This document shows positions 9,482 to 33,324 of a stretch of 64,000 nt of DNA, piece after piece. The notes under the pieces were generated by a model, which was not told the DNA's origin, did no database searches, and saw only the letters and a program-made list of their open reading frames with translations. The stretch covers positions 30,899-94,898 of the forward strand of contig JAUXVE010000066.1 of the NCBI GenBank assembly GCA_030680415.1, read 5' to 3'. The stretch comes from Rubrivivax sp. (GTDB lineage Bacteria; Pseudomonadota; Gammaproteobacteria; Burkholderiales; Burkholderiaceae_C). The position numbers and the translations under genes are program-made. How positions within the stretch are numbered: the stretch's first letter is position 1; each line of letters begins with the position of its first letter.

Positions 9482-9588
9482 GAATAGCGATTCAGGACGT
9501 GAGCCATGCGTCCCGACCGTGCGAACAGGCCGTTCCGGCGCTCCGCCGCGCAGGGGTCGAACGGCGCCGCCCCGAGGAACACGACACC

Positions 9589-10059
9589 GTGAACAAGCGC
9601 CTGCTGACCCTGACCGTCAACGAACGCGTCGAGCAACATGCGGTGGCCGACAACGCATTGCTGCTGGACGTGCTGCGCGACACGCTGGGCCTGACCGGCA
9701 CCATGCAGGGCTGCGACGGCGGCGAATGCGGCGCCTGCACGGTGCTCGTCGACGACCAGCCGCAGCTGGCCTGCCTGACGCTCGCCGCCACCTGCGCCGG
9801 GCGGCGCATCGAGACCATTGAACACCTCACGCGCAACGGCCGCATGAGCCTCTTGCAGCAAGCCTTTCACGAGCACCTGGGCACCCAGTGCGGCTACTGC
9901 ACGCCGGGCATGGTGATGGCCGCCGAGGCGCTGCTGCGCCGCGTGCCGCAGCCCAGCGACGCGCAGATCCGCGACGGGCTGGCGGGCAACCTGTGCCGCT
10001 GCACCGGCTACGTGAAGATCATCGAGTCCGTGCGCGCGGCGGCGGGAGTGGCGCGATGA
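9589..10059 (+). CDS. hcrC: 4-hydroxybenzoyl-CoA reductase gamma subunit (2x[2Fe-2S])
   Basis: GCDGGECGACT and QCGYCTPG...NLCRCTGY clusters; GAGGA before GTG 9589; first gene of a C-A-B operon. Confidence 0.85.
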   Translation: MNKRLLTLTVNERVEQHAVADNALLLDVLRDTLGLTGTMQGCDGGECGACTVLVDDQPQLACLTLAATCAGRRIETIEHLTRNGRMSLLQQAFHEHLGTQCGYCTPGMVMAAEALLRRVPQPSDAQIRDGLAGNLCRCTGYVKIIESVRAAAGVAR

Positions 10060-12440
10060 GCGGCACCAACACCACCACGCCGGTGCGCGGTGCGGTCGGC
10101 CGGCGCACGCCACTGATCGACGGCATCGAGAAGGTCACCGGCCGCGCGCGCTACACCGCCGACCTGCCGCTGGGCCCGGCGCTGATCGGGCGCATCCTGC
10201 GCAGCCCCGTCGCGCACGGCATCATCCGCGGCATCGACACCACGAAGGCGCGCGCCATCCCGGGGGTGCGGGCCGTCGTCACCGGCGAGGATTTCGCCGC
10301 TCCCTACGGCGTGATCCCGATCGCGCAGAACGAATGGCCGCTGGCGCGCGACAAGGTGCGCTACCGCGGCGAGCCGGTGGCCGCGGTGGCGGCTGTCGAC
10401 GAAGCCACCGCCGAAGCGGCGCTGCGGGCGATCGTGCTCGACATCGAGCCCTTGCCGGCGTACTTCGCCGCCGCCGATGCGCGCGCCGAAGGCGCGGTGC
10501 TGCTGCACGACAACAAGGCCGGCAACATCGAACGCCGCGTCGATCAGGCCTTCGGCGATGTCGACGCCGGCTTTGCAGCGGCCGACCTGGTGCTCGAGCG
10601 CAGCACGAGCTATGCCGAGGTCGCGCACGGTCAGATCGAGCTCAACGCCGCCGTGGCCTGCTACGAGCCCGAGGCCGATCGCCTGACCACGCATTCGGTG
10701 ACGCAGGTGCCCTACTACCTGCACCTGACGCTGGCGCAAGTGCTGGGCATGGACGCCTCGCGCATCCGCGTCGTCAAGCCCTTCGTCGGCGGCGGCTTCG
10801 GCCACCGCGTCGAGCCCTTGAACTTCGAGATGGTCACCGCCGCGCTGGCGCGGGCGGCCGGCGGCACGGTGAGGACGCAGCTCACGCGCGAGGAAGGTTT
10901 CCTCACGCACCGCGGCCGGCCGGCGACCGACATCCGGCTCAGGATCGGCATCAAGCGCTCGGGCGAGATCACCGCCGTCGATTGCGAGATCGTGCAGCGC
11001 GGCGGCGCCTACGGCGGCTACGGGCTGGTGACCATCCTCTACGCCGGCGCGCTGCTGCACGCGCTGTACCGCGTCGGCGCGGTGCGTTACCAGGGCTTTC
11101 GCGTCTACACCAACCTGCCGCCCTGCGGCGCCATGCGCGGCCATGGTGCCGTCGACGCGCGCCACGCCTTCGAGTCGCTGCTCGACGAGATGGCGGGCCA
11201 GCTCGGGCTGGACCCGTTCGCGGTGCGGCGCGCCAACCTGATCGACACGCCCTACCGCACGCTCAACGACCTGCAAGTCAACTCCTACGGCATCCCCGCC
11301 TGCCTGGACTGGGCCGAGCAGGCTTCGGGCTGGGCCACGCGGCGCGGCAGGCCCCCGCGCAGCGACGGTCTCAAGCGCGGCCTGGGCCTGGCCTGCTCTC
11401 ACTACGTCTCGGGGTCGGCCAAGCCGGTGCACTGGAGCGGCGAGCCGCACGCGGTGATCAACCTCAAGCTCGACTTCGACGCCAGTATCACCATTCTCAC
11501 CGGCGCATCCGACATCGGCCAGGGCTCGTCGACGCTGCTGACGCAGGTGGTGGCCGAGGTGCTGATGTTGCCGATGGCGCGCATCCGCGTCGTCGCCACC
11601 GACAGCGTGCTGACGCCCAAGGACAACGGCTCGTACTCGTCGCGCGTGTCGTTCATGGTCGGCAACGCGGCGCTGCGCGCGGCCGAGGCCCTGAAGCGCG
11701 TGCTCGTCGCGGCCGCGGCGCGCAAGCTGGAAGTCACGCCCGACGAGGTCGACTGGGCCGGTGAGCGCTGCGCCGTCGTCGGCACCGACAAGACGCTCGA
11801 CTTCGCGCAGGTCGTCGAGGCCGCGCTGATCGACAGCGGCACGCTCACGGTCAAGGGCGTGTGGTCGACGCCGAAGGAAACGCAGGGCGGCACCTTCCGC
11901 GGCGCCGCGGTCGGTTCGACCGCCGGTTTCTCCTACGCCGCGCAGGTGGTCGAAGTCAGCGTCGACGAGGACACCGGCGTCGTCAAGGTCGAGCAGGTCT
12001 GGGTGGCGCACGACTGCGGTTTCGCGATCAACCCGCTGGCCGTCGAAGGCCAGGTGCAGGGCGCCGTCTGGATGGGCATGGGGCAGGCCCTGTGCGAGGA
12101 GACGCAGTACCACGAGGGCCTGCCGATGCGGCCCAACTTCCTCGACTACCGCGTCCCGACCATCGCCGAGTCGCCACCGATCGAGGTCAAGCTGATCGAG
12201 AGCATGGACCCGCTCGGCCCCTTCGGCGCCAAGGAGGCGAGCGAAGGCGCGCTGCACGGTTTCCCGCCGGCCTTGACGAACGCGATCTGCGACGCCATCG
12301 GCATTCGCCTGACGGCGCTGCCGGCGACACCCGATCGTGTGCTCGACGCGATCCACACCCGCCGGCGCGAGCAGCGGCTGCAGGCACGCCGCGCGGCGGC
12401 GACGACGACGCCGCAGGCCGCCACCAGCGCAGCGAAATAG
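10056..12440 (+). CDS. hcrA: 4-hydroxybenzoyl-CoA reductase alpha (molybdenum cofactor) subunit
   Basis: Xanthine-oxidase-family Mo subunit: VGGGFG, AMRGHG, SYSSRV, GAKEASEG (Hcr-type rather than KGVGE); ATGA overlap with hcrC. Confidence 0.85.
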   Translation: MSGTNTTTPVRGAVGRRTPLIDGIEKVTGRARYTADLPLGPALIGRILRSPVAHGIIRGIDTTKARAIPGVRAVVTGEDFAAPYGVIPIAQNEWPLARDKVRYRGEPVAAVAAVDEATAEAALRAIVLDIEPLPAYFAAADARAEGAVLLHDNKAGNIERRVDQAFGDVDAGFAAADLVLERSTSYAEVAHGQIELNAAVACYEPEADRLTTHSVTQVPYYLHLTLAQVLGMDASRIRVVKPFVGGGFGHRVEPLNFEMVTAALARAAGGTVRTQLTREEGFLTHRGRPATDIRLRIGIKRSGEITAVDCEIVQRGGAYGGYGLVTILYAGALLHALYRVGAVRYQGFRVYTNLPPCGAMRGHGAVDARHAFESLLDEMAGQLGLDPFAVRRANLIDTPYRTLNDLQVNSYGIPACLDWAEQASGWATRRGRPPRSDGLKRGLGLACSHYVSGSAKPVHWSGEPHAVINLKLDFDASITILTGASDIGQGSSTLLTQVVAEVLMLPMARIRVVATDSVLTPKDNGSYSSRVSFMVGNAALRAAEALKRVLVAAAARKLEVTPDEVDWAGERCAVVGTDKTLDFAQVVEAALIDSGTLTVKGVWSTPKETQGGTFRGAAVGSTAGFSYAAQVVEVSVDEDTGVVKVEQVWVAHDCGFAINPLAVEGQVQGAVWMGMGQALCEETQYHEGLPMRPNFLDYRVPTIAESPPIEVKLIESMDPLGPFGAKEASEGALHGFPPALTNAICDAIGIRLTALPATPDRVLDAIHTRRREQRLQARRAAATTTPQAATSAAK

Positions 12441-12442
12441 CC

Positions 12443-13432
12443 ATGGAACGTTTGCCCGACTTCCGCCTGTTGCGCCCGACGACCTACGGCGAGGCGGCGG
12501 CGCTGCTGGCTGCCGAGCCCGGCGCACGGCTGCTGGCCGGCGGCACCGACCTCGTGCCCAACCTGCGGCGGGGGCTCGAGAGCCCGCCGGTGCTGGTCGA
12601 TCTGGGCGCTGTGCAGGGCCGCGCCGACCTCGAGTTCGAGGCCGAGGGGCTGGTGCTCGGCGCCGGCGTCACGCTGGCCCGGCTGGCGGCGGACGAACGC
12701 ATCGCCAGCGAATACGCCGCCATCGGCCAGGCCGCCCAGGCCGCGGCGGGCCCGGGCCACCGCAGCGTGGCCACGCTGGGCGGCAACCTGTGCCTGGACA
12801 CGCGCTGCGTGTTCTACAACCAGAGTGCCTGGTGGCGCCAGGCCAACGACCACTGCCTCAAGCGCGGCGGCGACACCTGCCATGTCGCACCGCAGGGCCG
12901 GCGCTGCCATGCCGCGTTCAGCGGCGATCTGGCGCCGGCGCTGATCGCCCTGGCCGCCGAGGTCGAAGTGCTGTCGTGCCGCGGCACGCGCCGCGTCGCG
13001 CTGGCCGACTGCTACCGCGACGACGGCGCCGCGCCGTTGACCATCGAACGCGACGAGGTCCTGACCCGGGTGCACCTGCCGGCGCCTGCAGCCGGGCTGG
13101 CCAGTGGCTATCGCAAGGCGCGCGTGCGCGGGGCGATGGATTTCCCCCTCGCCGGCGTGGCCTGCGCGCTGCGCATGGACGGTGGCGCCATCGCCGAGCT
13201 GCGCATCGCGCTGACCGGAACCAACTCGCACCCGCTGCTGCTGCAAGGCACCGCGGCGCTGCTCGGCAAACCGCTGGACGAGGCCGCACTGGCGGCGCTG
13301 GGCAAGCTGGTGCACAAGCAGGTGAGCCCCATGCGCACGACGGTGACGCCCTCCAATTACCGGCGCCTGGTAGCCGCCGTGCACGTGCAACGCCTGCTGC
13401 GCGACCTGGCCGCCATACCGGCGTCGAACTGA
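12443..13432 (+). CDS. hcrB: 4-hydroxybenzoyl-CoA reductase beta subunit (FAD + [4Fe-4S])
   Basis: AGGTDL and ATLGGNLC FAD motifs plus the HcrB-specific Cys insert CVFYNQS...CLKRGGDTCHVAPQGRRCHA. Confidence 0.88.
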   Translation: MERLPDFRLLRPTTYGEAAALLAAEPGARLLAGGTDLVPNLRRGLESPPVLVDLGAVQGRADLEFEAEGLVLGAGVTLARLAADERIASEYAAIGQAAQAAAGPGHRSVATLGGNLCLDTRCVFYNQSAWWRQANDHCLKRGGDTCHVAPQGRRCHAAFSGDLAPALIALAAEVEVLSCRGTRRVALADCYRDDGAAPLTIERDEVLTRVHLPAPAAGLASGYRKARVRGAMDFPLAGVACALRMDGGAIAELRIALTGTNSHPLLLQGTAALLGKPLDEAALAALGKLVHKQVSPMRTTVTPSNYRRLVAAVHVQRLLRDLAAIPASN

Positions 13433-13433
13433 G

Positions 13434-15575
13434 ATGGCCATCTCCCCGGCCACACCTGCCGGCGAGGCTCTTTCCTGTGCAGGCGCCGGCGGCGTCTGGC
13501 AGTGCGACAGCTGCGGCCGGACCAGCGAGGGTTTCGCCTTTCCCTTCGGCCTGTGCCCGCACTGCAGCGGCCAGCTTCGCCGTGTCGACGCCGCGCCACA
13601 GGCCAGCGGCCGGGCGGCGGCGGTCGAAGGCGTGCGCATGGCCTTCGAGATCGAACTCGGTGGCCGCGCCTACTACCAGCGCGCCGCCGCCGAAACCGGC
13701 GACCGCGAACTGCAGCAGCTGTTCGGCCGCTTCGCCCTCATGGAGGGCGAGCACATGGAAACGCTGACGCGCCGCTACCACCTCGACGTGCCGCCGCCGT
13801 CGCCGGCGTTGCGCCGCGAGGTGGCGGCGATCTATGCCGGCGTCGAAGACCAGCCGCACGACCCGGCCAACCTGTTCCGCATCGCGATCGCGCTGGAGCA
13901 GCGGGCGGCGCAGTTCTTCGGCAGCCGCGCCGGGCTCGCCGCCGCCGGCTCGGCCGAGCAGCAGCTGTACCAGGAGCTGGCGGCCGAGGAACACGAACAC
14001 GCCAGCCTGCTGGCCAGCGAACTGGAGCGCTGGCGCAGTGGCCAGGCCGGGCGCTTCAGCACCGCCACGCCGGGGTCCGCGGCGTGGCCGGCCGCCACCG
14101 CCGGCACGCCGCAGGCGGCGGCACCAAGTGCCTCGGCGAACGCGGCCGTGCTGCTGCTCGCCGCGGCCGACACGCAGCACACCGCGCTCGTCTGCGGCAC
14201 CGCCAGCGTCAGTTACGGCGAGCTGCGCGAGCAGGTGGCACGCGCGGCGGCCTGCTGGCGCGCGCGTGGCCTGCACCCCGGCGACCGCATCGCCATCAAG
14301 CTGCCCGACGGCATCGACTGGGTCACGGCCTTCCTGGGTGCGCTGTGGGCCGGCGCGGTGGCGGTGCCGGTCAACCCGCGCGTGCCGGCACCGGAATGGC
14401 AGTACATCCTGGACGAGGCCGGTTTCAGCGTCATCCTGGCCGAGTCGAACGACGACACGCCGACGCCGTGGCGCGAACGCACGCTGCTGGTCGAGGACTT
14501 CCGCCGCGGCGTGCAGGGCGCCGCAGCCGTTGCGGCCTGTGCCGTGGCGCCGAGTGCGCCGGCCTTCTGGTGCCATTCGTCGGGCACTTCGGGCAAGCCC
14601 AAGGCGGTGGTGCACGCGCACGCCTTCGCCCGCCACATCGAACAGGTGTCGAGCGAGGCGCTGGGCATCCGCGCCGACGACCGTCTGTACGCCAGCTCCA
14701 GGCTGTTCTTCTCCTACCCGCAGACGAACAGCCTGTGGGCCGGCCTGAAGCTTGGCGCCTGCGTCATCCTCGACCCGCAGTGGCCCACCGCCGCCGGCGT
14801 GGCTGCCACGGTCGCGGCGCAGCGCCCGACGGTGTTGTTCAGCGTGCCCTCGCTGTACCGCAACCTGCTGCACGAAGGGCTGGCGCCGGCCATTGCCCGG
14901 GCCGGCGTGCGCCTGTGTGTCTCGGCCGGCGAAGCGCTGCCGCCCAGCCTGCGCGACGAGTGGCGGCGGCAGACCGGCCTGGCCATCGCCAACGGCTACG
15001 GTGCGTCGGAGACGCTGGTGCTGGTGATGATCGACCGCGGCGACGCACACGGCTTTGCGCCCTCGCCCGGCGTCGACATCCAGCCGCTGGACGAGGTGCC
15101 TGTCGGCCTGCCGTCGCGCCTGTGCATCCGCGCGCCGACGCTGGCCCTGGGCTACCTCGACCGGCCGCAGGCCCAGGCCGAGAACTTCCGCGACGGCGCC
15201 TTCTGCCCGGCCGACCTCTTCGCCCGCGACGCAAGCGGCGGCTGGCGCTTCGCCGGCCGCGAGGACTCGCTGGTGAAGATCCATGGCCGCTGGGTCAACC
15301 TGGTCGAACTCGAAGAACGCCTGGCGTCGAAGGCGCCCGGCCTGAAGGAGGCGGCCGCGGTGCTGGTGCCCGACGCCGACGGTGTCGACGCCGTGGCCTT
15401 CTTCTTCGCCGCCGCCGACGACGCTGCCGCCCGCGCCGCCTTGCAGGCCTGCGCCAGCGCCCTGCCCCCGCACCAGCGGCCGCGCTGGTGGCATGCGGTG
15501 GAAACCCTGCCGCGCGGCCCCACCGGCAAGTTGCTGCGGCGCAAGTTGCGCGAACTGCACGACCTCATGGGCTGA
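13434..15575 (+). CDS. Fusion: Zn-ribbon + ferritin/rubrerythrin-like domain + aryl-CoA ligase (AMP-binding)
   Basis: CDSC...CPHC; EIELGGRAYY...EGEH and ALEQRAAQFF...EEHEH di-iron helices; then SSGTSGKPKAVVH, YGASET, GREDSLVK, PRGPTGK. Confidence 0.8.
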   Translation: MAISPATPAGEALSCAGAGGVWQCDSCGRTSEGFAFPFGLCPHCSGQLRRVDAAPQASGRAAAVEGVRMAFEIELGGRAYYQRAAAETGDRELQQLFGRFALMEGEHMETLTRRYHLDVPPPSPALRREVAAIYAGVEDQPHDPANLFRIAIALEQRAAQFFGSRAGLAAAGSAEQQLYQELAAEEHEHASLLASELERWRSGQAGRFSTATPGSAAWPAATAGTPQAAAPSASANAAVLLLAAADTQHTALVCGTASVSYGELREQVARAAACWRARGLHPGDRIAIKLPDGIDWVTAFLGALWAGAVAVPVNPRVPAPEWQYILDEAGFSVILAESNDDTPTPWRERTLLVEDFRRGVQGAAAVAACAVAPSAPAFWCHSSGTSGKPKAVVHAHAFARHIEQVSSEALGIRADDRLYASSRLFFSYPQTNSLWAGLKLGACVILDPQWPTAAGVAATVAAQRPTVLFSVPSLYRNLLHEGLAPAIARAGVRLCVSAGEALPPSLRDEWRRQTGLAIANGYGASETLVLVMIDRGDAHGFAPSPGVDIQPLDEVPVGLPSRLCIRAPTLALGYLDRPQAQAENFRDGAFCPADLFARDASGGWRFAGREDSLVKIHGRWVNLVELEERLASKAPGLKEAAAVLVPDADGVDAVAFFFAAADDAAARAALQACASALPPHQRPRWWHAVETLPRGPTGKLLRRKLRELHDLMG

Positions 15576-15579
15576 CGAG

Positions 15580-16350
15580 ATGGCCTCCTTCGTCGGCGTC
15601 GAGAGAATCGGCCGCGTGCTCGTGGCCACGCTGTCGCGGCCGCCGGTGAATGCCATCGACGACGCGCTGGTGGCCGAACTCGACGCCGTGCTCGAGCGCG
15701 CCATCGCGGACGCCGATATCGCCGTGCTGCACCTGCGCAGCGACCAGCGCGCATTCAGCGCGGGCGCCGACCTGGCCCTCATCGAGTCCTGCTTCGCCAC
15801 GCCGCAGGGGCCCGATGCGATGACCGAGGTCGTGCGCAAGATGCAGGGCCTGTACCGGCGGCTCGAAGCGGCGCCGCTGGTGACGCTGGCCGAGATTGCG
15901 ACCACCGCGCTGGGCGGCGGGCTCGAACTGGCGCTGGCCTGCGACCTGCGCGTGGCCGCCCTGGAAGCCAGGCTGGGTCTGCCGGAAGCGCGGCTCGGGC
16001 TGGTGCCCGGCGCCGGCGGCACGCAGCGCCTGACGCGGCTGTGCGGTCCGGGTGTGGCCAAGCGCCTGATCCTCGGCGCCGAAGTGATCGACGGTGCCAC
16101 GGCCGAGCGGCTGGGTGTCGTGCAGTGGGCCCGGCCCGGGCCCGAGTTGGCTGACTTCGCATGCCGGTTGGCGGCGCAGTTGGCCGAGATGCCCAAGGCG
16201 GCGCTGGCCGCCAACAAGCGTTGCATCGCCGCCGCCACCGACGCCGCCAGCGACGGCTACGCGGCCGAGATCAGCGAAACGCGCCGCCTTTACGATCACC
16301 CCGAAACGCGAGGCAAGGTCGCAGAATTCCTGGCCCGGCGCGCGCATTGA
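15580..16350 (+). CDS. Enoyl-CoA hydratase/isomerase family protein
   Basis: PPVNAID, AFSAGADL, ALGGGLELALACD, PEARLGLVPGAGGTQRL. Confidence 0.88.
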   Translation: MASFVGVERIGRVLVATLSRPPVNAIDDALVAELDAVLERAIADADIAVLHLRSDQRAFSAGADLALIESCFATPQGPDAMTEVVRKMQGLYRRLEAAPLVTLAEIATTALGGGLELALACDLRVAALEARLGLPEARLGLVPGAGGTQRLTRLCGPGVAKRLILGAEVIDGATAERLGVVQWARPGPELADFACRLAAQLAEMPKAALAANKRCIAAATDAASDGYAAEISETRRLYDHPETRGKVAEFLARRAH

Positions 16351-16369: not shown

Positions 16370-17116
16370 ATGGAGTTCAAGGACAAGACCGCGGTCGTCA
16401 CCGGTGCCGGCTCCGGCATCGGCCGCGCGACGGCACAGGCACTGGCCCGCGAGGGCGCGCAGGTGATCGTCGCCGACATCGACCCCGCCGGCGGCGAGGC
16501 CACCGCCAACGCCATTCGCGAGCAGGGCCAGCGGGCCACCTTCATGCCCGTCGACATGACCGACCCGGCGTCGATCAGGGCTTTCGCAGCGGCGGCGCAG
16601 GCGCAGTTCGGTGCCGTCGATGTGCTCGTCAACGCCGCCGGCTGGGGCCGCACCGCACCTTTCGTCGACGGCACGCCGGAGTTCTGGAACAAGCTCGTCG
16701 CGCTCAATTTCGTCGGCCCGATGCAGCTGACCCAGGCCCTGCTGCCGGCGATGATCGAGCGCGCCAGCGGGCGCATCGTCAACATCGCCAGCGACGCCGG
16801 GCGCGTGGGCAGCCTGGGCGAGACCGTCTACGCCGGCGCCAAGGGCGGCCTGATCGCGTTCACCAAGTCGCTGGCACGCGAGACGGCGCGCTACCAGATC
16901 AACGTCAACTGCGTCTGCCCCGGCCCCACCGACACGCCGCTGATGGCGGCGGTGCCCGACAAGGTCAAGGAAGCGCTGATCAAGGCAATCCCGTTTCGCC
17001 GCCTGGGCAAACCGGAGGAGGTGGCCGAGGCGGTGCTGTTCTTCGCCAGCGGCCGCGCCGCCTACATCACCGGCCAGGTGCTCAGCGTCAGCGGCGGACT
17101 GACGATGGCCGGCTGA
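16370..17116 (+). CDS. SDR dehydrogenase, BadH-like (hydroxyacyl-CoA dehydrogenase)
   Basis: TGAGSGIG, NAAGWG, SDAGRVGS, YAGAK, CPGPTDTPL; AGAAAGGA RBS. Confidence 0.85.
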   Translation: MEFKDKTAVVTGAGSGIGRATAQALAREGAQVIVADIDPAGGEATANAIREQGQRATFMPVDMTDPASIRAFAAAAQAQFGAVDVLVNAAGWGRTAPFVDGTPEFWNKLVALNFVGPMQLTQALLPAMIERASGRIVNIASDAGRVGSLGETVYAGAKGGLIAFTKSLARETARYQINVNCVCPGPTDTPLMAAVPDKVKEALIKAIPFRRLGKPEEVAEAVLFFASGRAAYITGQVLSVSGGLTMAG

Positions 17117-17141: not shown

Positions 17142-17639
17142 ATGGACTACACCCTGCCCGAATTCCTGGCCCATGCGATCGCGCTCGAGCACGAGGCCGC
17201 CGAACGCTACCTCGAGCTGGCCGACATGATGGAGGCGCACCGCAACGACGAGGTGTCGGCGCTGTTTCGCGACATGGTGCGCTTTTCGCGCCTGCACCAC
17301 GACTCGATCGTCGAGCGCGCCCGCGGCGTTGCGCTGCCCGTGCTGCGCTCGTGGCAGTACCGCTGGACCCACCCGCCCGAAGCCGGCGGCGAGGAGGCCT
17401 TCGACTACACGCTCGATGCCTACAGCGCGCTGTGCTATGCGCGCGAGAACGAGGCGCGGGCGTTGGACTACTACAGCACGGTCGGCCAGCAGTCCTCCGA
17501 TCCCGAGGTACACCGGCTGGCGGCCGAATTCGCGGCCGAGGAAACCGAGCACGTGCAGGCACTGGACGACTGGCTAGCCCGCACGCCGCGGCCGTCGACG
17601 CCGTGGCGCGACGACCCGCAGCAGCCGCCGTCGGACTGA
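17142..17639 (+). CDS. Stand-alone ferritin-like/rubrerythrin-family protein
   Basis: AIALEHEAAERY...SRLHH and ARENEARALDYY...AAEETEHV helix pairs. Confidence 0.8.
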   Translation: MDYTLPEFLAHAIALEHEAAERYLELADMMEAHRNDEVSALFRDMVRFSRLHHDSIVERARGVALPVLRSWQYRWTHPPEAGGEEAFDYTLDAYSALCYARENEARALDYYSTVGQQSSDPEVHRLAAEFAAEETEHVQALDDWLARTPRPSTPWRDDPQQPPSD

Positions 17640-17657: not shown

Positions 17658-18077
17658 CTACTCACACAGGCGGCGGATGTCCTCGGGCACCGGGATGGCA
17701 TGGATGCGCCGCCGGTCCTGGGCATCACGCACGCAGAAGACACGCGTCTCGGTGCTCTCGCAGATCAGCTCGTCGCCGCGCGTGACGGTGTGCTTCTGGA
17801 TGAAGACCTTGGCGCGCCACTCCTCGACGCAGGTGCTGATCGTGATGCGCTCGCCGTAGGTGGCGCTCTTGACGAAACGCGCGTGGTGCTCCAGCAGCGG
17901 CGTACCGATGATGCCGTTGGTGTGTTCGAGAACATGCCACGGCGGCACGCCGCAGGTCATAAAGAAATGCAGCGACGACGCATCCATCCAGCGGTGGTAG
18001 CGCGGAAAGAACACGATGCCCGCCGGGTCGCAGTCGCCGAAGCGGATCTCGACGTTCATCGTTGTCGTCTTGCTCAT
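17658..18077 (-). CDS. Hotdog-fold acyl-CoA thioesterase (4-hydroxybenzoyl-CoA thioesterase family)
   Basis: [17 protein letters not shown] motif. Confidence 0.88.
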
Positions 18078-18190: not shown

Positions 18191-19009
18191 ATGAAACGAG
18201 TCCAACTCGCCGGCTACCAGGCCACCCATTTCGGCTACTCGGCGGCAGGCAAGGTCGCCACCATCCGGCTCAACCGCCCCGATCGCAAGAACCCGCTGAC
18301 TTTCGACTCCTACGGCGAGTTGCGCGACCTGTTCCGCGAGATGGTCTACGCCACCGACATCAAGGCCATCGTGTTCACCGGTGAAGGCGGCAACTTCTGC
18401 TCCGGCGGCGACGTGCACGAGATCATCGGCCCGCTGGTCAGGATGGACATGCCCGAGCTGCTCGAGTTCACGCGCATGACCGGCGACATGGTCAAGGCCA
18501 TGCGTGCCTGCCCGCAACCGATCATCGCCGCCATCGACGGCGTGTGCACCGGGGCCGGCGCGATGATCGCCTGCGGCTCGGACATGCGGCTGGCCACCGC
18601 GCGCAGCAAGCTGGCCTTCCTGTTCGTGCGCGTCGGCCTGGCCGGTGCCGACATGGGAGCGTGCACGCTGCTGCCGCGGCTGATCGGGCTGTCGCGCGCG
18701 GCCGACCTGCTCTTCACCGGCCGCGTCGTCGGCGGTGAGGAAGCCGAACGCTTCGGCTTCTACAACCGCCTGGTCGATCCCGACCAGCTCCTGGCCGAGG
18801 CCACGGCGCTGGCGCAGAGCCTGGCCGACGGCCCGACCTTCGGCCATGCGATGACCAAGACGATGCTGTGGCAGGAATGGAGTTCTGGCCTGGGCGAATG
18901 CATCGAGGCCGAGGCGCAGGCGCAGGCCATCTGCATGCAGACGAATGACTTCGAGCGTGCCTACCACGCCTTCGCCGCCAAGCACAAGCCGGTCTTCGAG
19001 GGCAATTGA
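18191..19009 (+). CDS. Enoyl-CoA hydratase family protein (abm-cluster type)
   Basis: [38 protein letters not shown]. Confidence 0.85.
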
Positions 19010-19173: not shown

Positions 19174-20393
19174 CCACCCCCGGCGATCTGGCCTGGCCGT
19201 TCTTCGACGACGGCCACCGCGCCCTGGCGCGCGAGCTGGAGCAATGGACGGCGGACCGCCTGCCGCCCCTGCTCGAGCACGCCGAAGACGACCTCGACGC
19301 GGTCTACGCCTGCGTGCGCAGGCTGGTCGCCGAACTGGGCCGCGCCGGGCTGCTGCGCGTGTGCGTGCCGGCGGCCTATGGCGGCCTGCGTGAAAGGCTC
19401 GACGTGCGCAGCCTGAGCCTGGCGCGCGAAACGCTCGGCCGCGCCTCGGGCCTGGCCGACTTCGCGCTTGCCATGCAGGGCCTGGGCAGCGCACCGGTGA
19501 CGCTGTTCGGCAGCCACGAGCAGAAGCTCGCACTGCTGCCCGGCGTGGCTGCGGGCCGCACGGTGGCCGCGTTCGCGCTCTCCGAGCCCGATGCCGGGTC
19601 GGACGTCGCAGCCGTCGCCACCACGGCCACGCGCGTGAGCGGCGGCTGGCGCCTGGACGGCATCAAGACCTGGATCTCCAATGCCGGCCTGGCCGACAGC
19701 TACGTCATCTTCGCGCGCAGCGGCGAAGGTCCGGGCACCAAGGGGTTGTCGGCCTTCATCGTCGACGCCGAAACAAAGGGGCTCGACGCCAGCGAGCGCA
19801 TCGACGTCATCGCACCGCACCCGCTGGGCACGCTGAAGCTCGACGACTGCCGCGTCGGCGACGAGCAGTTGCTGGGCGAACCCGGCCAGGGTTTCAAGAT
19901 CGCGATGGGCACGCTCGACACCTTCCGCACCACGGTGGGCGCCGCGGCGCTGGGTTTCGCGCGACGCGCGCTCGACGAGTCCGTGCAGCGGGCGCACGCC
20001 CGGCGACTGTTCGGCCGCACACTGGCCGAGTTCCAGCTCACGCAGATGAAGCTCGGCGAGATGGCGATGGCCATCGACGCTTCGGCGCTGATGGTCTACC
20101 GCGCCGCCTGGACCAAGGACGTGCGCGGCGGTCGCGTCACGCGCGAGGCGTCGATGGCCAAGCTGTTTGCCACCGAATCGGCGCAGCAGGTGATCGACGC
20201 CGCAGTGCAGCTGTTCGGCGGCCTGGGCGTGGTGCGCGGCGTGACGGTGGAGCGGCTGTACCGCGAGATCCGCGCGCTGCGCATCTACGAAGGCGCCAGC
20301 GAAGTGCTCAAGCTGATCATCGGCGGCCTCGCGCTCGCGCCGGCCGCGCCGGCCGTGGCGCCGCCAGCCCGGCCGCCGGTCCCTTCGGCCTGA
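19170..20393 (+). CDS. Acyl-CoA dehydrogenase (abm-cluster type)
   Basis: [39 protein letters not shown]. Confidence 0.9.
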
Positions 20394-23346: not shown

Positions 23347-24897
23347 ATGCCGCTCGCCGACTGGATTGCCGCCCATGCCAGGCGCACGCCGGCCCGGGTC
23401 GCCGTTCGTTTCGAAGACCAGACCCTGAGCTACGGCGGCCTCGCGGCGCGTTGCGAACAGATCGCCGGCGCCCTGTGTGCGGCCGGGGTGGCGCGCGGCG
23501 AGCGTGTCGCCTGGCTGGGCCTGAACTGCCCGGCGATGCTCGCCACGCTGTTCGCCTGCGCCAGACTCGGCGCGATCTTCATGCCCCTGAACTGGCGCCT
23601 TGCGCCGGCCGAGCACAAGGCGATGCTGCACGACTGCCTGCCCGCGGTGCTGTGTGCCGACGACGCCTACGCCGCCGCCAGCGCCGCCGCAGGCATCGCG
23701 CCGGCAGGCACACGCTGCGTCGCACGCAGCGCCGCCCCTGCCGGCTGGACACGCTGGGACGCTTTCCTCGCCGCGGCGCGGCCGCCGGCAGCGAGCGAGG
23801 CGGCGGTGGACAACAGCGCGCCGCTGCTGCTGTGCTACACCTCGGGCTCGACGGGGCGGCCCAAAGGCGTGCTGCTGAGCCAGGACGCCCTGGCCGCCAA
23901 CGCCGACGCCAGCGTCGACATGCACGCGATGACCAGCGACGACCGCGTGCTGACGACGCTGCCGCTGTTTCACGTCGGCGGCCTGAACATCCAGACCACG
24001 CCGGCGCTGCGCACCGGTTGCACCGTCGTGCTGCACGCCCGCTTCGACCCCGATGCCGTGTTCGACGCCATCGAGCGCGAACGCATCACGCTGACCGTGC
24101 TGGTGCCGGCGCAACTCGACGCGATGATCGCGCACCCGCGCTGGGCCCACGCCGACCTCTCGAGCCTGCGCATGATCAGCACCGGTTCGACGATGGTGCC
24201 CGAGCGCCTGATCCGCACCGTGCACGCACGCGGCGTGCCGCTGGTGCTGGTCTGGGGCGCCACCGAAACCGCGCCCATCGCGGCCTGCCTGCATGCCGAC
24301 GAGGCCATGCGCAAGGTCGGCTCGACCGGTCGCGCCGCCGCCGGGTGCGAACTGCGCATCGTCGACGCCGCCGGCCGCGACGCCGCACCGGGCAGCAGCG
24401 GCGAGATCCTCGTGCGCGGGCGCACCGTGATGAGCGGCTACTGGCGCGATGCGCCCGCCACCGCCAGGGCGCTGGCCGGAGGCTGGTACCACTCGGGCGA
24501 CAGCGGTCACTTCGACGACGACGGCTATCTCCATGTCGATGGCCGGCTCAAGGACATGATCATTTCGGGCGGCGAGAACGTCAGTCCGGCCGAAGTCGAA
24601 GCGGTGCTGCTCGAGTGCCCGGCCGTGGCCGAGGCGGCCGTCGTCGGCCGCGCCGACGAGCGCTGGGGCGAGGCGGTCGTCGCCGTCGTCACGGCGGCGC
24701 CCGGCGCGACGCTCACCGCCGAGCGCGTGATGGCCCTGTTCGACGGCCGGCTCGCGCGCTTCAAGCAACCCAAGCAGGTGTTCGTCGTCGACGCGCTGCC
24801 GCGCACGGCGCTGGGCAAGGTGCGCAAGGAAGAGGTGCGGCAGCTCGTCGCCCGTCTGGGCGCAGCGGCGCCCATCCACGTGGGGCGTATCGAATGA
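23347..24897 (+). CDS. iaaB: Acyl-CoA ligase (IaaB-like indoleacetate-CoA ligase)
   Basis: YTSGSTGRPKG, WGATET, SGDSG, DGRLKDMIISGGEN, PRTALGK; symbol from synteny. Confidence 0.7.
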   Translation: MPLADWIAAHARRTPARVAVRFEDQTLSYGGLAARCEQIAGALCAAGVARGERVAWLGLNCPAMLATLFACARLGAIFMPLNWRLAPAEHKAMLHDCLPAVLCADDAYAAASAAAGIAPAGTRCVARSAAPAGWTRWDAFLAAARPPAASEAAVDNSAPLLLCYTSGSTGRPKGVLLSQDALAANADASVDMHAMTSDDRVLTTLPLFHVGGLNIQTTPALRTGCTVVLHARFDPDAVFDAIERERITLTVLVPAQLDAMIAHPRWAHADLSSLRMISTGSTMVPERLIRTVHARGVPLVLVWGATETAPIAACLHADEAMRKVGSTGRAAAGCELRIVDAAGRDAAPGSSGEILVRGRTVMSGYWRDAPATARALAGGWYHSGDSGHFDDDGYLHVDGRLKDMIISGGENVSPAEVEAVLLECPAVAEAAVVGRADERWGEAVVAVVTAAPGATLTAERVMALFDGRLARFKQPKQVFVVDALPRTALGKVRKEEVRQLVARLGAAAPIHVGRIE

Positions 24898-27023
24898 GTC
24901 TCAAGATCGGCATCGACGTCGGCGGCACCTTCACCGACTTCGTCGTCGCCCGCGACGGCGAGCCGCCGCGCATCCACAAGACCCTGTCGACGCCGGCCGA
25001 CCCGTCGATCGCCGTCGTCGAGGGGCTGGCGCAGATCGCCGCGGGCATGCACCCGCCGCCGACCTTGCAGGAGTTCGCGCGCTCGATCGGCACCATCGTG
25101 CACGGCACGACCGTGACCACCAACGCCACGCTCACCAGCAGCGGCGCGCGCTGCGCGCTGCTGACCACCGAGGGCGTGCGCGATGCGCTGGAGATGCGCC
25201 GCGGCGTGCGCGAGGAGCAGTACAACAACCGCTATACCAACGTGCGCCCGCTGGTGCCACGCGAGCGCCGCATCGGCATCCGCGGCCGCATCGACCGCGA
25301 CGGCGCCCAGACCACGCCGCTCGACCTCGACGCAGTGCGCGCGGCGCTGGCGCTGTGGCGCGCCGACGGTGTGCAGGCCGTCGCGCTGTGTTTCATGAAC
25401 GCCTACGCCAACCCGGCGCATGAGCAGGCGGCGGCCGAGATCGTGCGGCGCGAGCTGCCCGACGCGTACTTGTCGGTGTCCACCGACGTGTTGCCGTCGA
25501 TCCGCTTCTACGACCGCGTCAGCACCACGGCGCTGAATGCCTACGTCGGCCCCAAGCTCGAGCATTACCTCGACCAGCTGGTCGAGCGGCTCGCCGGCAT
25601 CGGCTTCGGCGGGCTGCTGCTGATCATGCAGTCCAACGGCGGCGTGATCTCGCCGCAGGCGGCGCGCGACAAGGCAGCCTTGACGCTGCTGTCGGGGCCG
25701 GCCGGCGGGCCCGGCGCGGGGCTGTTCTATGTCGCTGCGCACGGGCAGCGGCGCTGCATCACCACCGACATGGGCGGCACCAGTTTCGAGGCCTCGGTCG
25801 CGGTGGGTGCGCCGATGGTCAAGAACGACGGCGAGATCGCGCGCCACCGGATCGCGCTGCCGATGCTCGACATCCACACCATCGGCGCCGGTGGCGGCTC
25901 GATCGGCTGGCTCGACGAAGGAGGCCTGCTGCGCATGGGCCCGCACAGCGCCGGCGCCGACCCCGGCCCGGCCTGCTATGGCCGCGGCGGCCGGCTGCCC
26001 ACCACCACCGACGCCAATGCCGTGCTCGGCTACCTCGACCCGGCGTTCTTTGCCGGCGGCCGCATGACGCTGGACGTGCAGGCGGCGCGGCGCGCGATCG
26101 AAGAGCACATCGCGCAGCCGATGGGGCTGAGCATCGAGCAGGCGGCCGCCGGCATGTACCGCGTGGCCTGCAACAACATGGCACAGGGCGTGCGTGAGGT
26201 GACCATCAAGCGCGGTTTCGACCCGCGCGAGTTCCCGCTCATTCCCGGCGGCGGCGCCGGCCCGATCCACGGCTGCCTGATCTGCAGCGAGCTCGGCATC
26301 CCGCTGCAGATCGTGCCGCGCGAGGCCTCGGTGCTGTGCGCCTTCGGCATGCTGATGAGCGAGCTGCGGCACGACTTCGTGCGCACCTTCGTCGCCCGCC
26401 TGGAAGGCATCGACTGGGCGCGTCTGTCGGCGCTGGTCGCGGCGATGGCGGCCGAGGGCACACGCCTGCTCGCCGCAGAGGGCATCGAAGCCGCACGCCG
26501 GCGCGTCGACCTGCGGCTGGATTGCCGCTACGTCAAGCAGTACCACGAGGTCTCGGTGGCGGTGCCGGGGGATCTGGTCGAGCGCCGCGACGCCGGCGCC
26601 ATCGCGGCCGCGTTCCATGCCGAACACCTGCGTCTGTACGGCTACTCGCTGCAGGCCGAGGGCTCGGCGGTCGAGATCATCAACGTGCGGCTGCAGGCGA
26701 TCGGCGCCACCGAGCGCCCAACCTACCGCAGCGAGGCGGCAGGCGACGCCGACGCCAGCCCGGCGCTGAAGGGCCGACGCCGCGTCTACGTTCCCGAGCG
26801 CGACGCCTACGCCGAGGTGGCGGTCTACGACGGCCACCGCATGCGCAGCGGCCAGCGCCTCGCCGGGCCGGCGCTGATCGAACAGGAGACCACCGCGATC
26901 CTGGTCAGCGACTCCTTCGACTGCGTGGTCGACGCGCTCGGCTCGTTCGTGCTCTACGCCAAGGGCCGGGAAGACCTGGTGGCCGCCAGCCTGCAGCAAG
27001 GGCAAGAGGAGGTGTGCAAGTGA
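24894..27023 (+). CDS. iaaC: Hydantoinase A/oxoprolinase-family ATP-dependent amidohydrolase subunit (IaaC-like)
   Basis: IDVGGTFTD, HGTTVTTNA, MQSNGG, LSGPAGG, DMGGTS, IGAGGGS, AGADPGPACYG. Confidence 0.78.
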   Translation: MSLKIGIDVGGTFTDFVVARDGEPPRIHKTLSTPADPSIAVVEGLAQIAAGMHPPPTLQEFARSIGTIVHGTTVTTNATLTSSGARCALLTTEGVRDALEMRRGVREEQYNNRYTNVRPLVPRERRIGIRGRIDRDGAQTTPLDLDAVRAALALWRADGVQAVALCFMNAYANPAHEQAAAEIVRRELPDAYLSVSTDVLPSIRFYDRVSTTALNAYVGPKLEHYLDQLVERLAGIGFGGLLLIMQSNGGVISPQAARDKAALTLLSGPAGGPGAGLFYVAAHGQRRCITTDMGGTSFEASVAVGAPMVKNDGEIARHRIALPMLDIHTIGAGGGSIGWLDEGGLLRMGPHSAGADPGPACYGRGGRLPTTTDANAVLGYLDPAFFAGGRMTLDVQAARRAIEEHIAQPMGLSIEQAAAGMYRVACNNMAQGVREVTIKRGFDPREFPLIPGGGAGPIHGCLICSELGIPLQIVPREASVLCAFGMLMSELRHDFVRTFVARLEGIDWARLSALVAAMAAEGTRLLAAEGIEAARRRVDLRLDCRYVKQYHEVSVAVPGDLVERRDAGAIAAAFHAEHLRLYGYSLQAEGSAVEIINVRLQAIGATERPTYRSEAAGDADASPALKGRRRVYVPERDAYAEVAVYDGHRMRSGQRLAGPALIEQETTAILVSDSFDCVVDALGSFVLYAKGREDLVAASLQQGQEEVCK

Positions 27024-28711
27024 CGACCATCGACCCGATCCTGTTGACCGTCTACGCGCGCACCTTCAAGTCGATCACCGACGAGATGAGCATCTCGATG
27101 GCGCAGACCACGCGCAGCCCGATCCTGTGCGAGGCCAAGGACTACGTCACCGGCCTCTACGACGCCGAAGGGCGCATGCTCGAGCAGACCGAGAACCTGC
27201 CGATCCTGGCCTTCTCGCTGGCGCCCGTGTGCAAGCACATCCGCAAGACCTTCGACGGCGAGATCTATCCCGGCGACGTCTTCTTTCACAACGACGTCTT
27301 CACGCTGGGCAATCAGAACAACGATGTCGCAGCCTTCAAGCCGGTGTTCGTCGACGACGAACTGGTGGGCTGGACGGCGGTCAAGGGCCACCAGGCCGAC
27401 ATCGGCGGCGCGGTCGCCGGCGGCTACAACCCGAACGCGGTCGAGGTCTGGCAAGAGGCGCTGCGCATCCCGGCGGTCAAGATCGTCGAGCGCGGCCGGC
27501 TGCGCCAGGACGTGTGGAACCTGATCTTCGCCAACGTGCGGCTGGACATCGTGCAGCACGACATGAAGGCCGAGATGGGCGCCTGCACGGTGGGCGAGCG
27601 GCGCCTGGTCGAGCTGCTGCGCAAGTACGGCGTGGCCAGCTACACCGCGCACAAGCAGGCCTTGTTCGATGCCACGCGGCGCATGATGGAAGCCGAGATC
27701 GCCAAGATCCCGAACGGCCGCTACAGCGGCGAAGGCCGTGTCTACTACGACGGCCGCCACGAAGGCAGCAAGTTCACGATCCGCGTCGACATCGAGGTCC
27801 AGGACAAGCGCATCAGGTTCGACTACTCGCGCACCGACGCGCAGACCAACGGCTTCGTCAACGGCACCTTCACGTCCAGCGCCTCGGCCACCATCCTGAC
27901 GCTGCTGCAGATGGTCAACCCCGACATCCCGCACAACGAGGGCATGGTCGAGCCGATCGAGATCGTGATCCCCGAAGGCACGATCCTCAACGCCGCGTAC
28001 CCGAAGGCGACGACCTTCGGCAACCACCTGTGCCCGCCGAATGCCGACGCCATCCAGCGCGCCCTGGCGCCAGTGCTGCCGGACCGGGGGACGGCCGGCT
28101 GGAACAACCTGCTGGCCGCGCTGACCACCGGCATCGACCCCAGGACGGGCGAGAAGTACGTCGACATCGGCTTCATGGGCTTGAAGGGCGGCTCCGGCGC
28201 GATGCAGGGCTGCGACGGCTACGACCACATCGGCATGATCGACGCTTCGGGTGGTGTGCTCGACCAGGACTACGAGATGTTCGAGCAGCAGACGCCGCAC
28301 CGCCTGATCAAGCACGAGTTGCTCACCGATACGGCCGGCGCCGGCCAGTGGCGCGGCGGCCTGGGCGTGGAGACGATCTTCGAGATCGGCTCGCACGACA
28401 CCCAGCTCGTGACCTTCGGCGATGGCGATTTCGAAGGCGCCTTCGGTCTCGCGGGCGGCCACGGCGCGGGCCTGAACTTCATCCGCCTTCACTATCCCGA
28501 TGGCCACACCGAGGTGCCGCGCAACAAGGACCTCATCACCGGCGTGCCGTGCGGCACGGTCTACCACCAGGTGGCCAATGGCGGCGGCGGCTGGGGCGAT
28601 CCCTTGCTGCGCGACCGCAAGGTGCTGGCCGAAGAAGTGCGCAATGGCGTGATTTCGCGCGCCGCGGCAATGCGCGACTACGGCATGACCGAGCCGGACT
28701 TCGATCGATGA
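27020..28711 (+). CDS. iaaE: Hydantoinase B/oxoprolinase-family subunit (IaaE-like)
   Basis: TTRSPILCEAKD, KGHQADIGG, GAGQWRGGLG, GGGGWGDP; GTGA overlap with the hydantoinase A gene. Confidence 0.78.
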   Translation: MTTIDPILLTVYARTFKSITDEMSISMAQTTRSPILCEAKDYVTGLYDAEGRMLEQTENLPILAFSLAPVCKHIRKTFDGEIYPGDVFFHNDVFTLGNQNNDVAAFKPVFVDDELVGWTAVKGHQADIGGAVAGGYNPNAVEVWQEALRIPAVKIVERGRLRQDVWNLIFANVRLDIVQHDMKAEMGACTVGERRLVELLRKYGVASYTAHKQALFDATRRMMEAEIAKIPNGRYSGEGRVYYDGRHEGSKFTIRVDIEVQDKRIRFDYSRTDAQTNGFVNGTFTSSASATILTLLQMVNPDIPHNEGMVEPIEIVIPEGTILNAAYPKATTFGNHLCPPNADAIQRALAPVLPDRGTAGWNNLLAALTTGIDPRTGEKYVDIGFMGLKGGSGAMQGCDGYDHIGMIDASGGVLDQDYEMFEQQTPHRLIKHELLTDTAGAGQWRGGLGVETIFEIGSHDTQLVTFGDGDFEGAFGLAGGHGAGLNFIRLHYPDGHTEVPRNKDLITGVPCGTVYHQVANGGGGWGDPLLRDRKVLAEEVRNGVISRAAAMRDYGMTEPDFDR

Positions 28712-29841: not shown

Positions 29842-30236
29842 ACCACGGCAAACCCATCAAGGTGCTGCTCGCCAAACCCGGCCTGGACGGCCACGACCAG
29901 GGGGCCAAGGTGGTCGCGCGTGCCATGCTCGACGCGGGTTTCGACGTCCACTACACCGGTCTGCGGCAGACGCCCGAGCAGGTGGTCGATGCCGCGCGGC
30001 GCGACGACGCCGACGTCATCGCGCTGTCCAGCATGGCCGGCTCGCATCTGTCGTTCTGCTCCCGGCTCAAGCCGCTGCTCGAAGCGGCGGGCTTGGGCGG
30101 CAAGCTCTGGATCATCGGCGGCAACCTGCCGGCGCAGGACCACGACGCGCTGCGCGCGCTCGGCTTCAAGGGCGTCTTCCAGACCGGCTCGCGGCTGGAC
30201 GCGATCTGCGATTTCATCGAGGCGAATCGACCATGA
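29838..30236 (+). CDS. iaaG: Cobalamin-binding small subunit of an acyl-CoA mutase (IaaG-like)
   Basis: KPGLDGHDQG (DxHxxG B12 motif), YTGLRQTPE, LSSMAG. Confidence 0.78.
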   Translation: MNHGKPIKVLLAKPGLDGHDQGAKVVARAMLDAGFDVHYTGLRQTPEQVVDAARRDDADVIALSSMAGSHLSFCSRLKPLLEAAGLGGKLWIIGGNLPAQDHDALRALGFKGVFQTGSRLDAICDFIEANRP

Positions 30237-30313
30237 ACCATCGCACGGCCGTCCGAAGACGGTTCACGCCCCCGCGGGGGGCAGGCGCGGCACGCGCCAA
30301 GGGGGCCATTTGA
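30233..30313 (+). repeat. REP-like intergenic element E2; 26-aa mini-ORF bridging iaaG stop and iaaH start
   Basis: ATGA overlap at 30233-30236 and TTGA overlap at 30310-30313; same core motifs as E1. Confidence 0.7.
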
Positions 30314-32852: not shown

Positions 32853-33324
32853 AATCCGCTTCACGCTGAACGGCGTGCAACGCAGCGCCACGGTCGGCAT
32901 CGAGATCAGTGCGCTGCAGCTGCTGCGTGAGGTGATCGGCCTGACCGGCACCAAGTACGGTTGCGGCGAAGGCGAATGCGGCGCCTGCACGATCATCGTC
33001 GACGGCCGCTCGGTCAATGCCTGCCTGCTGTTCGCCGTCGATTGCGACGGCCGCGAGCTGACCACCGTCGAAGGCCTGAGCGGCAACGCGCGGGCGCAGG
33101 CGCTGCAACAAGCCTTCGTCGCGCATGGCGCCGTGCAGTGCGGCTTTTGCACGCCGGGCATGATGGTGCAGGCCACGCACCTGTTGGCCACGCAGCCGCG
33201 GCCCGACGCGGCTGCCGCCAAACGCGCCATCGAGGGCAACCTGTGCCGCTGCACCGGCTACCAGAAGATCGTCGAGGCGATCGTCCAGGCCGGTGAGTCG
33301 CTGGCGGCAGGAGATGCGGCATGA
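32836..33324 (+). CDS. iaaJ: Xanthine-dehydrogenase-family 2x[2Fe-2S] subunit (IaaJ-like)
   Basis: GCGEGECGACT, QCGFCTPG, NLCRCTGY. Confidence 0.78.
   Translation: MSLTHEIRFTLNGVQRSATVGIEISALQLLREVIGLTGTKYGCGEGECGACTIIVDGRSVNACLLFAVDCDGRELTTVEGLSGNARAQALQQAFVAHGAVQCGFCTPGMMVQATHLLATQPRPDAAAAKRAIEGNLCRCTGYQKIVEAIVQAGESLAAGDAA

Follow-up and report, generated by a model that had tools for sequence, protein, structure and literature searches.

Anaerobic growth of Rhodopseudomonas palustris on benzoate and 4-hydroxybenzoate depends on AadN (RPA0678), for which a role in the reduction of ferredoxin has been proposed; enzymes of this type are NAD(P)H/ferredoxin oxidoreductases in which NfnA and NfnB are fused, homologues of pattern-B NfnAB (PMC9973337). 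Rub-Bfu has been predicted to be a bifurcating complex of BfuBC and rubrerythrin, with rubrerythrin as the terminal module and a predicted activity in peroxide reduction (Schut et al. 2022, PMC9304861). Solved structures represent the benzoate-CoA (coenzyme A) ligases of Burkholderia xenovorans (2V7B) and R. palustris (BadA, 4EAT). In the reverse rubrerythrin of Clostridium acetobutylicum (revRbr), the Cys knuckle is N-terminal and is followed by the di-iron bundle. Here we analyze a gene at positions 13434-15575 of a 64,000-nucleotide stretch of a Rubrivivax sp. genome (contig JAUXVE010000066.1), referred to below as the window, in which a rubrerythrin-like module homologous to the tail of AadN-type proteins is joined to a predicted aryl-CoA ligase.

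Residues 10-206 of the encoded protein match positions 810-1004, the C-terminal 195 residues, of the NCBIfam entry PRK12775 (E 3.4e-72), which describes a 1006-residue ‘trifunctional 2-polyprenylphenol hydroxylase / glutamate synthase beta / ferritin domain’ protein, an Nfn-like NADPH oxidoreductase. Genes of the AadN type also adjoin hcr and hba genes. In contrast to AadN and PRK12775, the window protein has no Nfn catalytic domains and carries only the tail module, attached to a ligase; it also differs from the AadN-tail family in lacking the usual adjacency to aadN and the full eight-Cys motif. The original prediction had mentioned that a similar module ends some NADPH-oxidoreductases of anaerobic aromatic clusters, which is borne out by the PRK12775 match and by the AadN-type loci described below. 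With rubrerythrins (PF02915; PDB 1RYT) the module shares a four-helix bundle, the ligand series E, ExxH, E, ExxH and a CxxC...CPxC Cys4 knuckle, arranged in the order seen in reverse rubrerythrin, and the same flow of electrons from the Cys4 site to the di-iron site can be predicted for it. On the other hand, its sequence similarity to rubrerythrins is marginal (E about 7 for a PDB rubrerythrin), and most module members have eight Cys residues rather than four. The likeness to Rub-Bfu lies in the genetic coupling of a bifurcating-type flavin NAD(P)H/ferredoxin enzyme to a rubrerythrin-like di-iron protein, but Rub-Bfu belongs to the Bfu/HydBC family and not to Nfn, has no link to a CoA ligase and is likewise a prediction. 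The ligase half has the full ANL fold and all core motifs, as do the benzoate-CoA ligases and HbdA, from which the window protein differs in its additional 236-residue N-terminal module and linker. Literature searches on rubrerythrin- or ferritin-fused CoA ligases, on bzdV and on Nfn with rubrerythrin returned nothing on this architecture, in agreement with the original prediction, which knew of no characterized ligase built in this way. A mention of ferritin in a paper on syringate in R. palustris proved to be unrelated.

The gene is a single open reading frame (ORF) of 713 codons on the forward strand, from an ATG at 13434 to a stop codon at 15573-15575, and the ATG lies 1 bp past the TGA of hcrB (13430-13432). 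Its G+C content at third codon positions is 0.91, which fits the real genes of the window (70% G+C) and thus indicates that the ORF is a real gene. One continuous ORF at this place, joining a Cys ribbon and di-iron ExxH helices to an adenylate-forming enzyme, was what had been predicted, and both the coordinates and stop codons and the domain matches and invariant ligands agree with that description. The parts of the gene are as follows.

13434..15575, + strand: fused gene encoding module, linker and aryl-CoA ligase (713 residues, P0001; ORF and domain matches)
13497..13571, + strand: Cys4 metal knuckle, residues 22-46, W22-x-C24-x2-C27...C41-P-x-C44-x-G46, rubredoxin- or zinc-ribbon-like (invariant Cys)
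13611..14045, + strand: ferritin/rubrerythrin-like four-helix bundle, residues 60-204 (invariant ligands, helices in the AlphaFold2 model, Foldseek)
14046..14141, + strand: flexible linker rich in Ala and Pro, residues 205-236 (variable length and sequence, low model confidence, high ratio of nonsynonymous to synonymous substitution rates, dN/dS)
14142..15572, + strand: aryl-CoA ligase domain of the ANL superfamily, residues 237-713 (PF00501, 2V7B match, motifs)

An architecture search with Pfam and NCBIfam, which had been proposed as a check, found both the module and the AMP-binding domain in the 713-residue protein. The Pfam AMP-binding family PF00501 matched residues 245-575 with E 3.5e-61 and 207.6 bits, above its gathering score of 29.9, and the N-terminal part gave weak Pfam matches to Rubrerythrin (residues 68-113), Ferritin_2 (146-203) and Zn_ribbon (23-51). 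The di-iron ligands are E72, E104, H107, E155, E186 and H189, with the ExxH pairs E104xxH107 and E186xxH189. These six residues, together with C24, C27, C41 and C44, are invariant in 112 of 112 full-length homologues. The AlphaFold2 model of the full-length protein contains two confident domains, one composed of the knuckle and the bundle and the other of the ligase. It places helices with high predicted local distance difference test (pLDDT) scores at residues 60-87, 91-115, 145-168 and 174-201 and models the knuckle as beta-hairpins. The top Foldseek matches of the bundle are the uncharacterized COG1633 proteins 2FZF and 2OH3, bacterioferritins and Dps, all of them ferritin-like folds. The CxxC-x13-CPxC spacing of the knuckle resembles that of the rubredoxin-like domain of rubrerythrin, a similarity that is not significant (E 6.5).

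The fusion is genuine, selectively maintained, old and widespread in Burkholderiales. With residues 1-240 as the query, a homologue search gave 765 protein clusters, the best 120 of which were nearly all fusions of 700-740 residues with both domains, so the count of full-length homologues that had been called for is high. The Joint Genome Institute labels many such homologues ‘acyl-CoA synthetase/rubrerythrin’, and a Logan contig from a separate assembly encodes a protein identical to that of the window. When 1.84 billion representatives were searched exhaustively with HMMER, only 209 clusters reached E <= 1e-3, in the same three architectures described below, which indicates that the module family is narrow. 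When the window gene was compared with its two closest relatives, dN/dS was 0.34 in the bundle and 0.26-0.34 in the ligase, but 0.65-0.85 in the linker; codon bias inflates the absolute values, but the comparison between regions remains valid. By this measure, the constraint on the module equals that on the ligase, and both halves are under purifying selection. The suggestion that the gene might be a deletion chimera of one assembly is contradicted by these data and by the occurrence of the fusion in at least 43 species-level Burkholderiales genomes. It had also been considered that the architecture might be both common and already characterized: it is common in the databases but unnamed in the literature searched.

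To place the module in its genomic settings, we scanned one genome per species with seven module sequences as queries, which gave at least 545 module-encoding loci, and classified the best 80. The module is fused to a ligase in 43 of these, all from Burkholderiales-type metagenome-assembled genomes (MAGs; Rubrivivax, Ramlibacter, Ideonella, Rhodoferax, Polaromonas, Caldimonas and Rhizobacter). It forms the C-terminus of AadN in 26 (Anaeromyxobacter, Telmatospirillum, Aquincola), and in the remaining 11 it is a separate ORF, every time directly after aadN. An aadN gene lies directly upstream of the fused ligase in 23 of the 43 ligase fusions and does not in the other 20, most of which have hcrB immediately before the fused gene, as in the window, where hcrB and not aadN adjoins it. 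Altogether, the module is fused to or directly after an aadN-type Nfn gene, or has aadN directly before its ligase fusion, in 60 of the 80 loci. At locus L002, a 779-residue gene between hcrB and the fused ligase contains DHODB_Fe-S_bind, Fer4_20 and Pyr_redox_2 domains and corresponds to PRK12775 without its tail.

The window module is 48-55% identical to the modules fused or adjacent to AadN. In a quick tree, 16 ligase-fused modules fall into one fork of 19 rows that is nested among the AadN-associated modules (86% in the Shimodaira-Hasegawa-like approximate likelihood ratio test). The genome of the window itself holds, on contig C126, an aadN gene of 801 residues whose end overlaps (ATGA) the start of a 211-residue stand-alone module, 55% identical to that of the window, followed by genes for pyruvate:ferredoxin oxidoreductase (PFOR) and ferredoxin; this order of aadN, module, PFOR and ferredoxin recurs in seven other loci. 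On the same contig (L010:5356-17730), a NiFe hydrogenase (small and large subunits and cytochrome b) and a helix-turn-helix regulator precede aadN, and the PFOR has 1221 residues. The AadN-module fusion of Anaeromyxobacter sits among unrelated genes and in this respect resembles a self-contained enzyme, for which a small molecule is the probable acceptor. The named matches of a search with the tail were Thiocystis, Anaeromyxobacter and MAGs. Within the genus the module is patchily distributed, with strong matches in the genomes of about 7 of 25 species; the 16 other families sampled from the order gave no strong match.

The usual motif of the family comprises eight Cys residues, in the form CPxC, about 12 residues, CC, 6 residues, WxCxxC, 13 residues and CPxC. 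All eight are kept in 102 of 119 module-bearing homologues and in 76 of the 80 loci. The window protein keeps C15, C24, C27, C41 and C44 only, both Cys of the first CPxC and one of the CC pair having been lost by substitution, and the same loss is found in its close relatives P0002-P0008, P0010 and P0012. The sister lineage P0009 (locus L095) retains all eight Cys even though it has no aadN between hcrB and the ligase, which indicates that the loss of aadN preceded the loss of the Cys site. In the set of ligase fusions, the first Cys site is missing from 3 of the 20 without an adjacent aadN and from 0 of the 23 with it, a suggestive but not significant association between Cys-site loss and aadN absence (by our own estimate, P about 0.09). 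In a divergent AadN-module fusion of 975 residues from a Planctomycetota MAG (P0177), both ExxH motifs are degenerate (QRKRAH and AEATTE) and the eight Cys are kept, which hints that the Cys part may be able to persist without the di-iron site.

In the ligase half, the P-loop motif SSGTSGKPK, the motif GYGASET and the hinge motif GREDSLVK are intact, and the corresponding residues S382-K390, G521-E526 and G608-K615, as well as the catalytic lysine K699 of motif A10, are invariant or nearly so among the 112 homologues. The best solved structure is the benzoate-CoA ligase 2V7B (E 4e-63), and the best curated families are HbdA (3-hydroxybenzoate-CoA ligase, NF053567) and the benzoate-CoA ligase family TIGR02262. 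The divergence of the substrate loop that had been pointed out is visible in the alignment to 2V7B: residues 425-432 read FFSYPQTN where 2V7B has FFAYGLGN, and the form FFxYPQTN holds across the family. The region flagged earlier as a possible faulty junction (14050-14140) corresponds to the linker, residues 205-236, which is variable and gappy among homologues and disordered in the AlphaFold2 model, with pLDDT below 50 for residues 210-231.

The fused gene lies in a cluster with the following genes.

9499..10059, + strand: hcrC-like 2Fe-2S gamma subunit (Fer2, Fer2_2; TIGR03193 at 248.2 bits, just below the cut-off of 257.8)
10056..12440, + strand: hcrA, molybdopterin alpha subunit of 4-hydroxybenzoyl-CoA reductase (TIGR03194 at 1176.6, above the cut-off of 994.55)
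12443..13432, + strand: hcrB, FAD/[4Fe-4S] beta subunit of 4-hydroxybenzoyl-CoA reductase (TIGR03195 at 438.3, above the cut-off of 404.55)
15580..16350, + strand: enoyl-CoA hydratase family gene (conserved downstream partner)
16370..17116, + strand: short-chain dehydrogenase/reductase (SDR), best match BadH, 2-hydroxycyclohexanecarboxyl-CoA dehydrogenase (TIGR03206 at 293.9, below the cut-off of 431.2)
17142..17639, + strand: stand-alone ferritin-like protein of 165 residues (PF02915, E 1.9e-8; homologue of PDB 2OH3, E 2.5e-60)
17658..18077, - strand: 4HBT_2 thioesterase (gene calls and Pfam on L001, L002 and L095)
18191..19009, + strand: enoyl-CoA hydratase family protein PRK08258 (NF006107 at 474 bits, above the cut-off of 330)
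19176..20393, + strand: acyl-CoA dehydrogenase (domain and family matches)

HcrB aligns over its full length, Cys-rich [4Fe-4S] loop included, to Thauera aromatica 1RM6_B (E 3.6e-87), and the true start of hcrC is probably near 9589 rather than at the GTG at 9499, since its relatives have 156 residues. Judged by sequence, the neighbors encode a bona fide 4-hydroxybenzoyl-CoA reductase. A 2-furoyl-CoA dehydrogenase (HmfABC) as the molybdenum enzyme was ruled out, as HcrA and HcrB both pass the equivalog models for 4-hydroxybenzoyl-CoA reductase. The downstream set of hydratases, SDR, 165-residue ferritin-like protein, thioesterase and acyl-CoA dehydrogenase accompanies the fused ligase in many loci. 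The 165-residue protein was also considered as a close paralogue of the fused module and rejected, the similarity being marginal (E 0.25). Its homologue 2OH3 is an uncharacterized protein of Magnetospirillum. The second helix of the 165-residue protein reads VRFSRLHH instead of ExxH.

Elsewhere in the same genome, had, oah, dch and bcrCBA score above their equivalog cut-offs and represent a Thauera-type anaerobic benzoyl-CoA pathway; on contig C20 (L094:7619-14626), the order is had, oah, dch, bcrC, bcrB and bcrA, running to the contig end. Contig C87 encodes BoxB and, beside it, a canonical benzoate-CoA ligase distinct from the fused one. The presence of both benzoyl-CoA reductase and boxB indicates that benzoyl-CoA can be degraded with or without oxygen. 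At locus L003 (14640-16778), the place of the 165-residue ferritin-like protein is taken by DUF2249 and a hemerythrin-domain protein, a further accessory related to O2 or iron. Locus L096, the contig of the 85% identical protein P0006, has a 57-residue piece of the SDR and a split acyl-CoA dehydrogenase downstream, probably owing to assembly indels. It has no hcrCAB upstream, but some 5 kb downstream there are genes of the benzoyl-CoA reductase type (BcrAD_BadFG, HGD-D). The remainder of the window forms a catabolic island (23451-28711, 29920-31944, 33321-35720 and 46302-49784, + strand) with genes for hydantoinase A/B-type subunits resembling acetone or acetophenone carboxylase, a methylmalonyl-CoA mutase-like protein, the large subunit of a second molybdopterin hydroxylase, and a 1160-residue protein with DUF6537 that resembles indolepyruvate-ferredoxin oxidoreductase.

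The explanation that we favor, at roughly even chances, is that the gene is a Rosetta-stone fusion of the rubrerythrin-like redox module of AadN with a CoA ligase of the 4-hydroxybenzoate type, in which the module reduces H2O2 or O2. It starts from the homology to the AadN tail, the three architectures, the invariance of the ligands, the purifying selection, the intact ligase motifs and the true reductase encoded next to the gene; the reduction of peroxide or O2 by the module may be called our leading guess. The history would begin with AadN and the module, fused or split, and would lead to an ancestral Burkholderiales-type operon composed of hcrCAB, aadN, module and ligase. An in-frame fusion would then have joined the split module, by way of a flexible linker, to the aryl-CoA ligase encoded downstream of it. 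In the lineage of the window, aadN would later have been lost from the cluster, while a paralogous aadN and a stand-alone module were kept on another contig, and the extra N-terminal Cys site would have decayed. In the present protein, the ligase half would supply the adjacent reductase by activating 4-hydroxybenzoate or a closely related benzoate with a para substituent. Electrons would pass from AadN to the Cys center and on to the di-iron site, which would reduce H2O2 or O2 as rubrerythrins do. This removal of oxidants would protect or poise the oxygen-sensitive Fe-S and flavin chain of electron supply in a facultative organism, and the tether would keep the protection, and possibly AadN too, with the first enzyme of the pathway. 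A small-molecule acceptor is favored because the Anaeromyxobacter fusion is self-contained, because the named host genera appear to be facultative or micro-aerotolerant and not strict anaerobes, and because Rub-Bfu provides a precedent.

Several points weigh against this explanation. The function of the module is a prediction in every architecture, and the work on AadN mentions or tests no ferritin-like tail and gives no length or domain map (PMC9973337). No solved structure is close to the module, either by Foldseek at E <= 1e-3 or, as regards characterized relatives, in a PDB sequence search. Its Pfam Rubrerythrin match (PF02915) scores 21.0, below the gathering score of 22.8; the stand-alone paralogue of the same genome passes this threshold with 34.1, and many homologues have a precomputed PF02915 match. 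The Cys4 site could hold structural zinc rather than iron. The ligase misses the curated cut-offs (257.1 against 375.25 for TIGR02262 and 312.1 against 1000 for NF053567), so that it appears to be an aryl-CoA ligase related to, yet outside, the curated benzoate-CoA ligase and HbdA families, and its substrate has to be deduced from context; we infer 4-hydroxybenzoate from the adjacency of hcrCAB in most loci. Finally, the electron supply to the window copy is uncertain, because this copy has neither an adjacent aadN nor the first Cys site, which may be an interface with AadN.

A ligase that senses redox state or O2, as the original prediction had proposed, is unlikely. The di-iron module would in that case report O2, H2O2 or the redox state and, whenever the oxygen-sensitive reductase is unable to function, switch the ligase off through the tether, saving ATP and CoA. 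A facultative organism with both benzoyl-CoA reductase and BoxB would profit from such a switch, the module is still under selection in the clade of the window despite the non-adjacent aadN and the lost Cys site, and the predicted TM-score of the full-length model is fairly high (0.78) given the disordered linker. However, the same module with the same invariant ligands accompanies AadN in 37 loci that have no ligase, among them that of Anaeromyxobacter, which suggests that its ancestral role was not the regulation of a ligase. This constant association makes ligase-specific sensing less likely than a role inherited from AadN. The linker, moreover, is long, variable and nearly neutral.

We are similarly doubtful that AadN is linked to its client enzymes by the module, acting mainly as a docking adaptor or, with its Cys centers, as a ferredoxin-like carrier, a role in which ligase, AadN and 4-hydroxybenzoyl-CoA reductase would form a complex and any chemistry with O2 or peroxide would be incidental. 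The strict adjacency or fusion of the module to AadN and the conserved order of aadN, module, PFOR and ferredoxin speak for such coupling, as do the eight Cys of most members, enough for two metal centers, and the finding that the first Cys site is lost only where aadN is not adjacent, with the statistical limit given above. But six invariant di-iron ligands would be superfluous in a pure adaptor, and the Anaeromyxobacter enzyme has no obvious client adjacent to it. The potentials of rubredoxin-type centers and di-iron sites are much too high for electron transfer to 4-hydroxybenzoyl-CoA reductase or benzoyl-CoA reductase, which counts against a relay to these enzymes.

A more far-reaching reading, and in our judgment a long shot, is that AadN with its module represents a new Nfn-type enzyme in which O2 or H2O2 at the di-iron site would serve as the high-potential acceptor of flavin-based bifurcation. 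Traces of oxidant at oxic-anoxic interfaces would then power ferredoxin reduction on behalf of the 4-hydroxybenzoyl-CoA and benzoyl-CoA reductases, and the fusion to the ligase would give rise to a complex in which substrate activation is coupled to electron supply.

It is very improbable that the bundle is a catalytic oxygenase, a miniature of the BoxB or PaaA type, that would hydroxylate or epoxidize the aryl-CoA or aryl-AMP made by the ligase. The tethering of a di-iron carboxylate site to an enzyme that forms aryl-CoA and the second ferritin-like protein in the cluster would suit this role, but the bundle, with about 145 residues, is small and comes closest in fold to COG1633 proteins, bacterioferritin and Dps rather than to large oxygenase subunits, the module occurs with AadN outside aromatic clusters too, and the cluster encodes an anaerobic-type route of dehydroxylation. 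That the gene is an assembly artefact, a frameshift or a recent deletion chimera whose N-terminal part is a dead remnant might be argued from the single base pair between hcrB and the ATG, the missing aadN and the lost first Cys site, but is scarcely credible in view of the in-frame architecture in hundreds of sequences from several genera, the identical protein from the separate Logan assembly, the sister lineage L095 with hcrCAB, a 70-bp gap and an eight-Cys fused ligase, and the equal dN/dS of module and ligase.

The occurrence of the module in three settings, on AadN, alone beside AadN and on a CoA ligase, is a classic Rosetta-stone signal of joint action. AadN was linked to electron supply in aromatic degradation only in 2023, we found no discussion in print of a conserved rubrerythrin-like partner module of this enzyme, and the ways in which facultative bacteria provide low-potential electrons to, and protect, their oxygen-sensitive aromatic-ring enzymes are only partly understood. 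The 211-residue stand-alone protein and the 713-residue fusion offer compact, expressible handles on the role of the module. If the module is a sensor or a bifurcation acceptor, it would represent new enzymology. If, as we favor, it reduces peroxide or O2, this would explain how 4-hydroxybenzoyl-CoA reductase pathways persist in the largely aerobic Burkholderiales.

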